64,000 nucleotides of DNA, from NCBI RefSeq assembly GCF_030013205.1, contig NZ_CP122648.1. The stretch is one strand, 5' to 3'. A program made the translations under genes and the position numbers. The notes beneath the pieces were generated by a model, which saw only the letters and a program-made list of their open reading frames with translations, was not told the origin of the DNA and ran no database searches. Positions 1 through 48,073 of the stretch are shown one piece after another; position 1 is the stretch's first letter; every line of letters starts with the position of its first letter. Source of the stretch: Escherichia coli (GTDB taxonomy: Bacteria; Pseudomonadota; Gammaproteobacteria; Enterobacterales; Enterobacteriaceae).

Positions 1-490
1 AGTTTTTGCGCCAAAATACCGAAGACAAGTGTTCTACAGAGAGAAGCGTAGAGCAATAGGCAGTATTTTGAGAAAGCTGTGTGAGTGGAAAAGCGTACGG
101 ATTCTTGAAGCTGAATGCTGTGCAGATCATATCCATATGCTTGTGGAGATCCCGCCCAAAATGAGCGTATCCGGCTTTATGGGATATCTGAAAGGGAAAA
201 GCAGTCTGATGCTTTACGAGCAGTTTGGTGATTTGAAATTCAAATACAGGAACAGAGAGTTCTGGTGCAGAGGGTACTACGTCGATACGGTGGGTAAGAA
301 CACGGCGAAGATACAGGATTACATAAAGCACCAGCTTGAAGAGGATAAAATGGGAGAGCAGTTATCGATTCCCTATCCGGGCAGCCCGTTTACGGGCCGT
401 AAGTAACGAAGTTGGATGCAAATGTCAGATCGTGTGCGCCTGTTAGGGCGCGGCTGGTAAGAGAGCCTTATAGGCGCATTTGAAAAACCT
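1..490 (+). mobile_element. IS200 copy, partial (left part lies off the window); right boundary approximate
   Basis: Contains 5'-truncated IS200 tnpA; right end placed before hairpin at 488-506 from recalled IS200 length, not seen directly. Confidence 0.6.
2..406 (+). CDS. tnpA: IS200 transposase TnpA (Y1 HuH family), 5' end truncated by window edge
   Basis: Frame open to window start (VFAPKYRRQVFYREKRRAIGS...); HuH motif HIHMLVEIPP and catalytic-Tyr region RGYYVDTVG; near-identical to recalled IS200 TnpA. Confidence 0.85.
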   Translation, partial: VFAPKYRRQVFYREKRRAIGSILRKLCEWKSVRILEAECCADHIHMLVEIPPKMSVSGFMGYLKGKSSLMLYEQFGDLKFKYRNREFWCRGYYVDTVGKNTAKIQDYIKHQLEEDKMGEQLSIPYPGSPFTGRK

Positions 491-543
491 CCGGCTATGC
501 CGGAGGATATTTATTTCAGTTTCGCGGCGGGTGGCATCAGCAA

Positions 544-570
544 TAAAGTTTCCCCCTTCCTTGCCGATAA
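544..570 (+). promoter_or_regulatory. Sigma-28 (FliA) promoter of the tar-tap-cheRBYZ operon
   Basis: TAAAGTTT (544-551), 11-nt spacer, GCCGATAA (563-570); matches the sigma-28 consensus, about 30 nt upstream of tar. Confidence 0.8.
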
Positions 571-601
571 CGAGATCAACTTGTTTTCAGGAAGGTGCCT
601 T

Positions 602-2263
602 ATGATTAACCGTATCCGCGTAGTCACGCTGTTGGTAATGGTGCTGGGGGTATTCGCACTGTTACAGCTTATTTCCGGCAGTCTGTTTTTTTCTTCCCTT
701 CACCATAGCCAGAAGAGCTTTGTGGTTTCCAATCAATTACGGGAACAGCAGGGCGAGCTGACGTCAACCTGGGATTTAATGCTGCAAACGCGCATTAACC
801 TGAGTCGTTCAGCGGTGCGGATGATGATGGATTCCTCCAATCAACAAAGTAACGCCAAAGTTGAATTGCTCGATAGCGCCAGGAAAACATTGGCCCAGGC
901 CGCGACGCATTATAAAAAATTCAAAAGCATGGCACCGTTACCTGAAATGGTCGCTACCAGTCGTAATATTGATGAAAAATATAAAAACTATCACACAGCG
1001 TTAACTGAACTGATTGATTATCTTGATTATGGCAATACTGGAGCTTATTTCGCTCAGCCAACCCAGGGAATGCAAAATGCAATGGGCGAAGCGTTTGCTC
1101 AGTACGCCCTCAGCAGTGAAAAACTGTATCGCGATATCGTCACTGACAACGCAGATGATTACCGATTTGCCCAGTGGCAACTGGCGGTTATCGCGCTGGT
1201 GGTGGTATTGATTCTGCTGGTGGCGTGGTACGGCATTCGCCGTATGTTGCTTACACCGCTGGCAAAAATTATTGCTCACATTCGCGAAATCGCCAGTGGT
1301 AACCTGGCGAATACCCTGACCATTGACGGGCGCAGTGAAATGGGCGACCTGGCGCAGAGCGTTTCACATATGCAACGCTCTTTGACTGACACCGTCACTC
1401 ATGTGCGTGAAGGTTCAGATGCCATCTATGCCGGTACCCGTGAAATTGCGGCGGGCAACACCGATCTTTCCTCCCGTACTGAACAGCAGGCATCTGCGCT
1501 GGAAGAAACTGCCGCCAGCATGGAGCAGCTCACCGCGACAGTGAAGCAAAACGCCGATAACGCCCGCCAGGCCTCGCAACTGGCGCAAAGTGCCTCCGAT
1601 ACTGCCCAGCACGGCGGAAAAGTAGTGGATGGTGTAGTGAAAACGATGCATGAGATCGCCGATAGTTCGAAGAAAATTGCCGACATTATCAGCGTTATCG
1701 ATGGTATTGCCTTCCAGACTAATATCCTCGCGTTGAATGCCGCTGTTGAAGCCGCGCGTGCGGGTGAACAGGGCCGTGGTTTTGCCGTGGTGGCGGGCGA
1801 AGTGCGTAATCTTGCCAGTCGCAGCGCCCAGGCGGCAAAAGAGATCAAAGCCCTCATTGAAGACTCCGTCTCGCGCGTTGATACCGGTTCGGTGCTGGTC
1901 GAAAGCGCCGGGGAAACAATGAACAATATCGTCAATGCTGTCACTCGCGTGACTGACATTATGGGCGAGATTGCATCGGCATCGGATGAACAGAGCCGTG
2001 GCATCGATCAAGTCGCATTGGCGGTTTCGGAAATGGATCGCGTCACGCAACAGAACGCATCGCTGGTGCAGGAATCAGCTGCCGCCGCAGCTGCGCTGGA
2101 AGAACAGGCCAGTCGTTTAACGCAAGCGGTTTCCGCGTTTCGTCTGGCAGCCAGCCCACTCACCAATAAACCGCAAACACCATCCCGTCCTGCCAGTGAG
2201 CAACCACCGGCACAGCCACGACTGCGAATTACTGAACAAGATCCAAACTGGGAAACATTTTGA
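602..2263 (+). CDS. tar: Methyl-accepting chemotaxis protein II (aspartate/maltose chemoreceptor Tar)
   Basis: 553 aa from ATG 602 (MINRIRVV) with RBS AGGAAGG; matches recalled K-12 Tar; six-frame ORF starts earlier at 497. Confidence 0.95.
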
Positions 2264-42420: not shown

Positions 42421-42508
42421 GTCGGCGGATGCGGCGCGAATGCCTTGTCCGCCCCACAACGCACCACAATCGTAGGCCTGAGAAGACGCAACAGCGTCGC
42501 ATCGGGCA
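42421..42508. repeat. BIME (two REP units) between yebF and yebE
   Basis: cggcggatgcggcgcgaatgccttgtccgcc and gtaggcctgagaagacgcaacagcgtcgcatcgggca. Confidence 0.6.
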
Positions 42509-42722
42509 ATCAGCGTCAAACAGTGCCACTCAAAACGTCAAACTACTTTCACCTAAAATACCCTTATCACCTGATATACAGTAAACACCTTACCTGGCGC
42601 GAATTTCTTTGAATAACGGTCTACCGCCCCGCTTATTTTCGCATCTTTTGTCTCGATATACATTTTCTGACATCCTCATCCGCTATGCTACAGGCACTAA
42701 AAATGGTTATTGAGGAGCAAAT

Positions 42723-43382
42723 ATGGCTAACTGGTTAAATCAACTGCAATCCCTGCTTGGGCAAAGCAGTTCTTCTGCCTCCTCGTCTGCGGATCAGGGA
42801 TTGGGCAAACTTTTAGTGCCAGGCGCATTAGGCGGACTGGCTGGGCTGCTGGTCGCAAATAAATCAGCACGTAAATTTCTTACGAAATATGGCACCAACG
42901 CGTTACTGGTTGGCGGCGGAGCGGTCGCGGGTACGGTGCTGTGGAATAAATACAAAGATAAAATTCGCGCGGCGCATCAGGACGAACCGCAGTTTGGCGC
43001 GCAAAGTACGCCGCTGGATGAGCGTACGGAACGTTTGATCCTTGCGCTGGTCTTTGCCGCTAAAAGTGATGGTCATATTGATGCCAAAGAACGTGCGGCA
43101 ATCGATCAGCAATTGCGTGAAGCCGGTGTGGAAGAACAGGGGCGTGTACTCATTGAGCAGGCAATCGAACAACCGCTGGATCCACAACGCCTGGCTACCG
43201 GGGTCCGCAATGAAGAAGAGGCGCTGGAAATCTATTTCCTGAGCTGCGCGGCTATTGATATTGACCATTTTATGGAACGCAGTTACCTGAATGCACTGGG
43301 TGACGCGCTGAAAATCCCCCAGGACGTTCGTGAAGGCATTGAACGCGATCTCGAACAACAAAAACGCACTTTGGCGGAATAA
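42723..43382 (+). CDS. yebE: Inner membrane protein YebE (DUF533)
   Basis: 219 aa; [25 protein letters not shown]... Confidence 0.9.
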
Positions 43383-43545
43383 TTCCGCTCTCTGGATAGC
43401 CTGAAGTTGACTATTTCGGGCTATCCAGAACCGCACAGCCATTTGAGCAGGCTGATTTTCTCTGTCTGCATAACATTCGATATCCGCGCCATTACCTGTC
43501 ATCATGTGACTGCTCCCCGCCCTGTCGGGTGAGGCTTCCCACTTC

Positions 43546-44715
43546 TTAAGCCGCAACCGTCTGTGTGACGGATTTACGCTGGCCTCCATGGGCAGAAACG
43601 ACGAGTCCCGCCGCTTGTAATTCCAGTATGCCCTTGCGTTTGATGTTGAGCGCCGCGTTGATATCGCGGTCATGTTCAACTCCACACTCTGGACACTGCC
43701 AGATGCGCTTATGTAATGGCATCTCCGACATTTTGTGACCGCAGCAGTGGCAGGTCTTCGAACTGGCGAACCATTGATCCAGTTTCACCAGATGCACACC
43801 TTTCTCTGTTGCTTTGTATTCCAGTTTTGTGATGAATCCAGACCATCCAGCATCGCCTATCGCACGAGCCAGATGGTGATTTTTCATCATATTTGCCGTT
43901 TTCAATGTCTCGACAATTACCGCTTGGTTTTCGTCAACAATTGCGCGAGATAACTTGTGCTGGAAATCGGCACGGGCACTGGCTACCCGTTCGTGAACGG
44001 CTGCAAGTTGTATTCTGGCTTTGCGCCTGTTTGCGCTCCCTTTTTTCTTACGGGACAGTGCTTTCTGCTTCCGGCGCAGGTTGCGACTTGCATTGATTAG
44101 GTGGCGGGGACTGGCAATTTTATTGCCGTCCGATTTGATGACAAAATGCGCCAGCCCCATATCCAGCCCTGTCACATTTGATATCAGTGCGGGCTTTGCC
44201 GGCGCTTCCATCCCGTCGTCACAGAGTAACGACGCGTAGTATTTCCCGGTTGCGCTGCGGCTCAACGTGATACTTTTCAGCATTCCCGTAATTTCACGAT
44301 GTAAACGCGCCTCAATCGGCAAGATTTTCGGTATTTTTATCGCACCATCAAGGACTTTTATGCCAACACAATGATAGCTCGATTGTCTGCCGTGTTTACT
44401 TTTAAAGGTTGGTTTACCTGCTTTCAGTTTCGGATTGAAAAAGTTAGAAAAAGCCACGTCGAGGTTAATTACCGCCTGCTGCAACGCAATAGAATCATAT
44501 TCTTTAAGCCATCCATACCGGCGGGATTTCTTCGCCACTGCAAGCAGTGGTTTGAGGTCTTTACGCGGGTTTAAATTTACGCGGTGCCGCTGGTAAGAAT
44601 GTTTCTTGATATGCAGAGCTTTGTTGTACGCAAAACGCACTGCACCGAACTGGGCGTTGATAAATTCAGCCTGTTCTGGTGTCGGGTAGATGCGTACTTT
44701 TGTTGCTCTTAACAT
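43546..44715 (-). CDS. tnpB: IS605-family TnpB (RuvC-like RNA-guided endonuclease, OMEGA effector)
   Basis: 389 aa; RuvC-I GLDMGLAHF, RuvC-II AVIVETL, zinc finger CHCC...CPEC, RuvC-III HDRDINAALNI; looks intact. Confidence 0.85.
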   Translation of the reverse strand: MLRATKVRIYPTPEQAEFINAQFGAVRFAYNKALHIKKHSYQRHRVNLNPRKDLKPLLAVAKKSRRYGWLKEYDSIALQQAVINLDVAFSNFFNPKLKAGKPTFKSKHGRQSSYHCVGIKVLDGAIKIPKILPIEARLHREITGMLKSITLSRSATGKYYASLLCDDGMEAPAKPALISNVTGLDMGLAHFVIKSDGNKIASPRHLINASRNLRRKQKALSRKKKGSANRRKARIQLAAVHERVASARADFQHKLSRAIVDENQAVIVETLKTANMMKNHHLARAIGDAGWSGFITKLEYKATEKGVHLVKLDQWFASSKTCHCCGHKMSEMPLHKRIWQCPECGVEHDRDINAALNIKRKGILELQAAGLVVSAHGGQRKSVTQTVAA

Positions 44716-44771
44716 AATCAGCGCTCATTGATATAATGCTTTTATTTTAACACTTTAGGTGAATATATCAA

Positions 44772-45197
44772 TTGAGTAATCATGATGATTTACTGGCGGG
44801 ATTTCTCCGCAAACGACACAGTGTCAGTAAGCTGGTTGTGCACCTTATTTTTACGACAAAGTATCGACGCAAACTATTCGACAGTCAGATGATCGCTCAG
44901 TTGCGTGAGGCTTTTGGCTCCGCTGCGGCAAAGCTTGAATGCGAAATTATTGAGATGGACGGGGAGCCAGACCATGTACACCTGCTGGTTGCCTACCCGC
45001 CAAAACTGGCGGTCAGTGTGATGGTCAATAATTTAAAATCGGTATCATCACGTTTGCTACGCCAGCAGAACGCGCATTTACGTATGCAGAGTAAAACGGG
45101 GCTTTTGTGGTCGAGATCGTACTTTGTCTGTAGCACCGGAGAGGCAACGATTGAAACGCTCAGAGCCTACGTTCAGAGTCAGTCAACACCTGATTGA
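44772..45197 (+). CDS. tnpA: IS200/IS605-family transposase TnpA (Y1 HuH)
   Basis: 141 aa; HuH motif HVHLLV, catalytic-Tyr region WSRSYFVCSTGEA; first in-frame start is TTG, so start uncertain. Confidence 0.8.
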   Translation: MSNHDDLLAGFLRKRHSVSKLVVHLIFTTKYRRKLFDSQMIAQLREAFGSAAAKLECEIIEMDGEPDHVHLLVAYPPKLAVSVMVNNLKSVSSRLLRQQNAHLRMQSKTGLLWSRSYFVCSTGEATIETLRAYVQSQSTPD

Positions 45198-45326
45198 TCT
45201 TTAAAGCCCTGCGGGCTTTTCGCCTTATATCCCCGCCCGCATTGGGCGAGGGTTTACGGCGTTTTTCGCTAAGCAATGACTACCCTGTTTCGCTTGCATC
45301 TCCGGTGAGTTTTGCCACCCTTATAA

Positions 45327-48073
<2,747 letters not shown>

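Follow-up and report, generated by a model that had tools for sequence, protein, structure and literature searches.

What lengthens the spacer between yebE and ptrB in some Escherichia coli chromosomes, and does the DNA found there still have what a mobile element needs? The question is raised by a stretch of 64,000 nucleotides from contig NZ_CP122648.1 (assembly GCF_030013205.1), called the window below, in which an initial inspection of the letters, made without database searches (the sequence-only reading), had noted an apparently intact IS200/IS605-family element at this place. We estimate at roughly 90% the probability that the locus carries a full-length copy of a known insertion sequence, ISEc46, with the transposase (TnpA) and RNA-guided nuclease (TnpB-omega RNA) mechanism of its family.

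A precise insertion of ISEc46

In the window, the yebE-ptrB interval (positions 43383-45353) is 1971 bp long, compared to 208 bp in K-12 MG1655, whose spacer is without annotated feature. This length, and the pair of divergent open reading frames (ORFs) described by the sequence-only reading, were both recovered from the ORF listing and by reading the sequence. The short K-12 intergenic region that it had expected was verified by the alignment that it had suggested, the 208 bp being empty. Alignment of the empty and occupied sites gave the boundaries of the insertion: the element initially placed at 43496-45270 is indeed there, its true ends (43506 and 45268) departing from those coordinates by 10 bp on the left and by 2 bp on the right. 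The K-12 empty site reads CATCAT|CTAAGC, and zero bases were duplicated upon insertion. The extra 1763 bp is a precise insertion without target duplication, and TTAG immediately precedes it when the tnpB-sense strand is read. This top strand of the element is the minus strand of the window; its left end (LE) is position 45268, its right end (RE) position 43506. The core features are the following, TAM standing for target-adjacent motif.

43506..45268, minus strand: whole ISEc46 copy, 1763 bp (alignment of empty and occupied sites with K-12)
43546..44715, minus strand: tnpB, RNA-guided endonuclease, 389 aa (Pfam, NCBIfam, ISDra2 alignment)
44772..45197, plus strand: tnpA, Y1 HUH transposase, 141 aa, TTG start (Pfam, NCBIfam, IS608 alignment)
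45269..45272, minus strand: target motif and TAM, TTAG (CTTAG with 45273), directly 5′ of the LE, not duplicated

When 5426 complete E. coli genomes, K-12 included, were compared to the interval by megablast, the majority matched its two flanks only, and the flanks adjoined. In strain K_EC180, RefSeq annotates an “IS200/IS605-like element ISEc46 family transposase” and an “RNA-guided endonuclease InsQ/TnpB family protein”, and the window TnpA and TnpB are 100% identical to the K_EC180 proteins (WP_000064873.1 / WP_000064874.1 in the Prokaryotic Genome Annotation Pipeline). Judged by these identical RefSeq proteins, from which we take the ISfinder name, the element is the already catalogued ISEc46 of the IS200/IS605 family, which standard pipelines label as such. 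The window copy is the same in substance, and the sole difference noted is a private base change in the RE hairpin, described below.

Both proteins keep their catalytic residues

TnpA matched the Pfam model Y1_Tnp over its whole length (model positions 1-121 of 121, E = 6e-39), and scored 141.8 bits, for a cut-off of 55, against the NCBIfam model of IS200/IS605 family transposases, NF033573. TnpB matched all three Pfam domains HTH_OrfB_IS605, OrfB_IS605 and Cas12f1-like_TNB, and reached 342 bits, for a cut-off of 100, with NF040570, the RNA-guided endonuclease TnpB family. The initial assignment to the IS200/IS605 family is upheld by these matches, as the NCBIfam scores lie beyond the curated cut-offs.

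In an alignment with the IS608 TnpA (2a6m), residues H68/H70, Y133 and Q137 of the ISEc46 transposase fell on H64/H66, Y127 and Q131. The tyrosine of a “SYF” motif had been considered as the catalytic residue; it was rejected, the IS608 alignment pointing to Y133, in “RAYVQSQ”. The tnpA coordinates agree with those of RefSeq, and a Shine-Dalgarno-like AGGTGA lies 9 nt upstream of the TTG start. Residue E124 was also inspected as a candidate damaging private change, the three other-site copies compared having a G there. We dismissed it because 368 genomes share the allele, and because ISDra2 TnpA has an E at the aligned position.

The TnpB motifs and zinc finger listed by the sequence-only reading are all present: GLDMG at 183-187, IVETL at 267-271, HDRDINAALNI at 348-358, and the CxxC pairs 322-325 and 341-344 (C322/C325/C341/C344). 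Residues 4-380 align with the solved ISDra2 TnpB (8bf8/8exa, E = 3.6e-74), and the RuvC triad D185/E269/D351 falls, in the 8bf8 alignment, on D191/E278/D361, the ISDra2 catalytic residues in the numbering of the literature. A frameshifted TnpB or missing catalytic residues had been named as what would speak against an intact element; the ORF is open over its 389 aa and the triad is conserved. By these alignments, the tnpB gene is full-length, with its catalytic residues kept.

The two genes are separated by a 56 bp spacer, where a consensus scan predicted two divergent promoter-like sites, both with TG ahead of the -10 hexamer.

44709-44737, plus strand: predicted promoter-like site toward tnpA, TTAACA-17-TATAAT (11/12)
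44771-44744, minus strand: predicted promoter-like site toward tnpB, TTGATA-16-TAAAAT (10/12)

The ends of the element and the choice of target

Each end was read on the tnpB-sense strand, with the following features.

45200..45268, minus strand: left end, with two hairpins and the motif GTAAAC (DNA fold)
43530, minus strand: lineage-specific G-to-A change within the 5′ arm of the hairpin at the RE, read as T on the plus strand (alignment of 11 relatives)

The LE is ordered CGAAAAACGCCGTAAA-CCCTCGCCC-AATGC-GGGCGGGG, and contains an imperfect hairpin, CCCTCGCCC-AATGC-GGGCGGGG, at 45231-45252. The DNA fold of the LE has an energy of -19.4 kcal/mol (z = -3.95). Immediately 5′ of this hairpin is the motif GTAAAC (45252-45257), which varies together with the target motif. 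A second LE hairpin, AAAGCCC-GCA-GGGCTTT, is located at 45203-45219, directly after the tnpA stop codon. The RE order is CCTCACCC-GACA-GGGCGGGG-AGCAGTCAC, with a hairpin, CCTC(G/A)CCC-GACA-GGGCGGGG, at 43515-43534. Both ends have a subterminal imperfect hairpin, and the two are alike; this is the hallmark of the family, in which terminal inverted repeats are absent.

The RE hairpin is where the window copy departs from its relatives. With A at 43530, a G-C pair is replaced by an A-C mismatch, and the pair is intact in the 10 other relatives of the 11 aligned. The initial description of the element as apparently intact is sustained for the proteins; in the RE hairpin of the window copy, one pair is broken. 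A 55-mer centred on the variant, which seeds in megablast only if the central base matches, was found full-length in 7 of the 5426 genomes, namely K_EC180 and six swine enterotoxigenic E. coli strains. The change may lower excision of the window copy or its recognition by TnpA, or else alter the omega RNA described below.

Two isolated right-end sequences were seen outside of the window. Plasmid p1 of strain E8 (L066, 1201-1238) holds a lone 38-bp right-end remnant between copies of IS21 and IS30, and this remnant shares the A variant with the window copy. In L013 (7669-7706), a 38-bp perfect palindrome, GTGACTGCTCCCCGCCCTGAAGGGCGGGGAGCAGTCAC, shows the right-end terminus on both strands.

Copies of the element at 99.4-100% identity were found at at least five different flanks, each time after YTTAG, and also in prophage contigs. 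Two other-site copies, 99.4-99.5% identical, lie in an IclR-family gene (after CTTAG) and in an integrase gene adjoining a tRNA-Arg (after TTTAG). Scanned for the 17-nt RE terminus, viral contigs gave 58 loci. When the LE carries CGTAAAC, YTTAG precedes the element at 11 out of 11 independent sites; with CGAGAAC in the LE, the preceding motif is (T/A)TCAG (8 sites out of 8). This correlation between LE motif and target motif is what DNA-guided target choice, as described for the family, would predict. No single pairing register of LE guide (GTAAAC versus GAGAAC) with target (TTAG versus TCAG) fitted all variants. Three elements (L015, L029 and L034) encode a TnpB 99.2-99.5% identical to that of the window, yet have CGAGAAC in their LE and lie after TTCAG. 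Near-identical TnpB proteins serving both TTAG and TTCAG elements would require a relaxed reading of the TAM, or a mismatch between the targets of the transposase and of the nuclease.

Shortened forms of the element were encountered in the course of these searches. Mini-elements of 46-47 bp with a single hairpin consist of the 5′ part of the LE, one hairpin and the RE terminus (CGAAAAACGCCGTAAACCCTCGCCC-GACA/AATGC-GGGCGGGGAGCAGTCAC). They were seen in IMG/VR contigs L010 (5551-5596), L017, L041 (two), L053 and L060, and in NZ_CP065615.1 (2017832-2017877), each after YTTAG. Because ordinary right ends match these forms exactly over 29 nt, the megablast search for them is confounded, and only the two full-length matches, in 2 of the 5426 complete E. 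coli genomes, were counted; none is present in the window. Derivatives of about 1.33 kb without tnpA, composed of LE, tnpB and RE, were found in L006, L007, L015, L029, L034, L019, L028 and L061. Several are on plasmids with phage-like neighbour genes, L006 and L007 being E. coli plasmids with neighbours of the repL/icd/rha type. L006 is a mosaic, with a 3′ half near-identical to ISEc46 and a TnpB 88% identical overall.

A predicted omega RNA and its guide

In relatives of ISEc46, the guide RNA of TnpB is expected from the 3′ end of its gene and the adjoining element end. The two corresponding features of the window copy are given here.

43509..43627, minus strand: predicted omega-RNA scaffold, six helices (RNAalifold, 11 relatives)
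43486..43505, minus strand: flank 3′ of the RE, ATGATGACAGGTAATGGCGC, outside the element, putative omega-RNA guide

Eleven relatives, with TnpB proteins 65-100% identical to that of the window, were aligned over their last 230 nt. Nucleotide identity to the window is 85-93% over the final ~130 nt, versus 50-80% in the middle of the gene. The predicted scaffold overlaps the RE as well as the 3′ end of tnpB, and the RE hairpin (43515-43534) is one of its helices. Of the cells in the RNAalifold structure, 98.6% are paired. Compensatory changes were counted at three pairs, versus 0.5 in shuffled alignments (0 of 500 shuffles reached the observed value) and 0-1 with slid partners. The last ~120 nt would form a conserved, covarying structure fitting an omega RNA, a result that is supportive rather than conclusive.

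The K-12 empty site, GCTTAG|ATGATGACAGG..., is made of the TAM followed by the RE flank, with zero mismatches in 20 nt. In other words, the donor joint (TAM plus ATGATGACAGGTAATGGCGC) exists as the empty allele in K-12, and matches what the model of homing and retention by TnpB requires. By analogy with the work on ISDra2 and ISGst, the RE flank would be used as the guide of the omega RNA.

Proposed mechanism and known relatives

For ISGst and ISDra2, peel-and-paste transposition, cleavage of the donor joint by TnpB-omega RNA and retention of the transposon via recombination have been described (Meers et al., 10.1101/2023.03.14.532601), and TnpB is known to process its own mRNA into omega RNA (PMC10278001). 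Transferred from the family to ISEc46, the steps would be the following. The Y1 HUH transposase TnpA would excise the top strand in the form of a single-stranded circle, to be re-inserted 3′ of a TTAG picked by pairing with the short DNA guide near the LE hairpin. The leftward transcript would serve as the mRNA of TnpB, and its 3′ portion, with 16-20 nt of read-through into the flank, would yield the omega RNA. TnpB-omega RNA would then cut those copies of the site that have lost the element (TTAG then ATGATGACAGG...), and recombination with the sister chromosome would bring the element back.

The same model holds for ISGst of Geobacillus stearothermophilus, the scarless donor joint of which has an exact counterpart in the K-12 empty site. 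The TAMs of ISGst are TTTAT and TTCAT (Meers et al., 10.1101/2023.03.14.532601), versus TTAG for ISEc46. In ISGst and ISDra2 the model was tested experimentally, whereas ISEc46 is known here from sequence.

The TnpB of ISDra2, from Deinococcus radiodurans (structures 8bf8, 8exa and 8h1j), resembles that of ISEc46 in its D/E/D triad and zinc finger, and its TnpA (2xm3) aligns with ISEc46 TnpA residues 15-138. For both elements, the 3′ end of tnpB together with the right end is the expected source of the omega RNA. They differ in their end sequences, in gene arrangement (tnpA and tnpB of ISEc46 are divergent), and in target, which is YTTAG for ISEc46 and TTGAT, also the TAM, for ISDra2. IS608 and IS605, from Helicobacter pylori (TnpA 2a6m and 2vjv), share with ISEc46 the active-site residues, the subterminal imperfect hairpins and the absence of duplication. 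IS605 has the divergent gene order of ISEc46. Both IS608 and ISEc46 insert 3′ of a tetranucleotide, TTAC in the case of IS608, and differ in the sequences of hairpin, guide and target.

Distribution in E. coli and alternative explanations

A full-length copy of 1763 bp, at 99.4-100% identity, is present in 455 of the 5426 genomes, with a median of one place and a maximum of five per carrier genome. Occupancy of the yebE-ptrB junction was counted with two 100-bp queries, one for each of the left and right junctions, and each had full coverage in exactly 400 genomes (7.4%); the site is empty in the 5026 others. ISEc46 is mentioned in 23 papers; those listed are, by title and abstract, mostly surveys of resistance genomics or descriptions of isolate genomes, with a few stray text matches. 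One of them simply names the element in a list, and none of those listed was a study of its function.

Several results weigh against a working ISEc46 copy with its omega RNA. The DNA fold of the RE of the window copy is no better than that of shuffled sequences (z = -0.24). Similarly, the single-sequence RNA fold of the last 235 nt behaves like shuffles (z = -1.57), and an Rfam scan of 42500-46000 at E <= 1 reported no omega-RNA family. For the covariation, the 11 sequences compared are close relatives (mean column identity 92%), and no more than 3-4 compensatory pairs were counted. Finally, the element is mostly in single copy, with 400 genomes occupied at one site, a distribution that also fits a largely quiescent, vertically inherited element.

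A rival view is that the window copy is an immobilised fossil: a single ancestral insertion, passed on vertically, whose RE mutation blocks excision and whose ORFs are still open for lack of time to decay. The identical junctions in 400 genomes and the median of one copy per genome would then be explained, as would an RE that folds like shuffled DNA and has lost, at 43530, a pair kept in 10 other relatives. However, this change is limited to 7 genomes, and the other ~393 copies at the site have the consensus end. The 8-bp stem already tolerates a T-G mismatch, and TnpA may still bind with one more. The two ORFs are unbroken, their catalytic residues are conserved, and near-identical copies at other sites indicate recent mobility of this type of element. 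We consider immobilisation unlikely, and plausible for this lineage only.

More remote is the idea that the 85 bp separating the element from ptrB betray a domesticated function, a nuclease-dead TnpB of the TldR type acting as an RNA-guided regulator of neighbours such as ptrB. TnpB-derived transcription factors are documented (PMC10705468), but in the present case D185/E269/D351 and the zinc finger are intact, the gene belongs to a transposon that is complete, tnpA and the two ends being there, and the element also resides at unrelated loci; the idea is very improbable. Presence/absence polymorphism, taken alone, would equally be produced if the 1763 bp were ancestral and had been deleted in K-12 and most strains. 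We give practically no credit to such a history: the segment is missing from 5026 genomes out of 5426, its boundaries are the exact transposon ends next to TTAG, the empty site is scarless, and elsewhere the same sequence splits two genes, one of the IclR family and one for an integrase.

A full-length ISEc46 copy with its family mechanism is the reading that we retain. The mechanism follows from well-studied relatives, and the significance is slight beyond correct annotation. The insertion can serve as a strain-lineage marker, as 7.4% of the complete E. coli genomes share this junction and the RE variant marks a swine sub-lineage of 7 genomes. With a motif as short as TTAG, this naturally occurring E. 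coli TnpB is moreover a candidate compact editor. A more speculative idea, which we regard as distinctly improbable, is that the yebE-ptrB copy acts as a chromosomal gene drive or recombination barrier, with TnpB-omega RNA cutting incoming DNA that carries the empty allele (TTAG plus ATGATGACAGG...); the RE change of the swine strains would then lock the element in place with a nuclease still active.

Neighbouring genes and other observations

The genes on either side of the element were taken from the ORF listing.

42723..43382, plus strand: yebE
45354..47414, plus strand: ptrB, intact ORF of 686 aa

The distance of about 85 bp between the element and the ptrB start, given by the sequence-only reading, is exact with the corrected end: 85 bp lie between 45268 and the ATG at 45354. 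The tnpA gene is oriented toward ptrB. No terminator was detected by a scan of the tnpA-ptrB region, where the hairpin at 45203-45219 has too few T residues to pass; read-through from tnpA into ptrB is therefore possible. A promoter scan of the 85 bp between element and ptrB returned no promoter-like site. A polar or promoter effect of the element on ptrB is possible; this suggestion, like the rank of most biologically active accessory locus in the window that the sequence-only reading gave to the element, is a matter of opinion.

Strain K_EC180 is 100% identical to the window across the 1971-bp interval. Its ptrB (L002, 5005-7030) is annotated as a frameshifted pseudogene; the window ptrB is intact, with 686 aa.

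On the other side, directly after the yebE stop codon, an inverted repeat with 17-bp arms (43391-43429) is probably the yebE terminator. The sole match of the Rfam scan, to mir-4662 (E = 0.82, 21 bits versus a gathering threshold of 97), corresponds to this repeat, and was discarded as spurious.

The start of the window cuts a second Y1 transposase gene, of the IS200 type, and leaves its 3′ part at 29..406 (plus strand). This part shares 35% identity with ISEc46 TnpA (tblastn E = 2e-17), and lies ~90 bp upstream of an ORF for a Tar-like methyl-accepting chemotaxis protein (497..2263).

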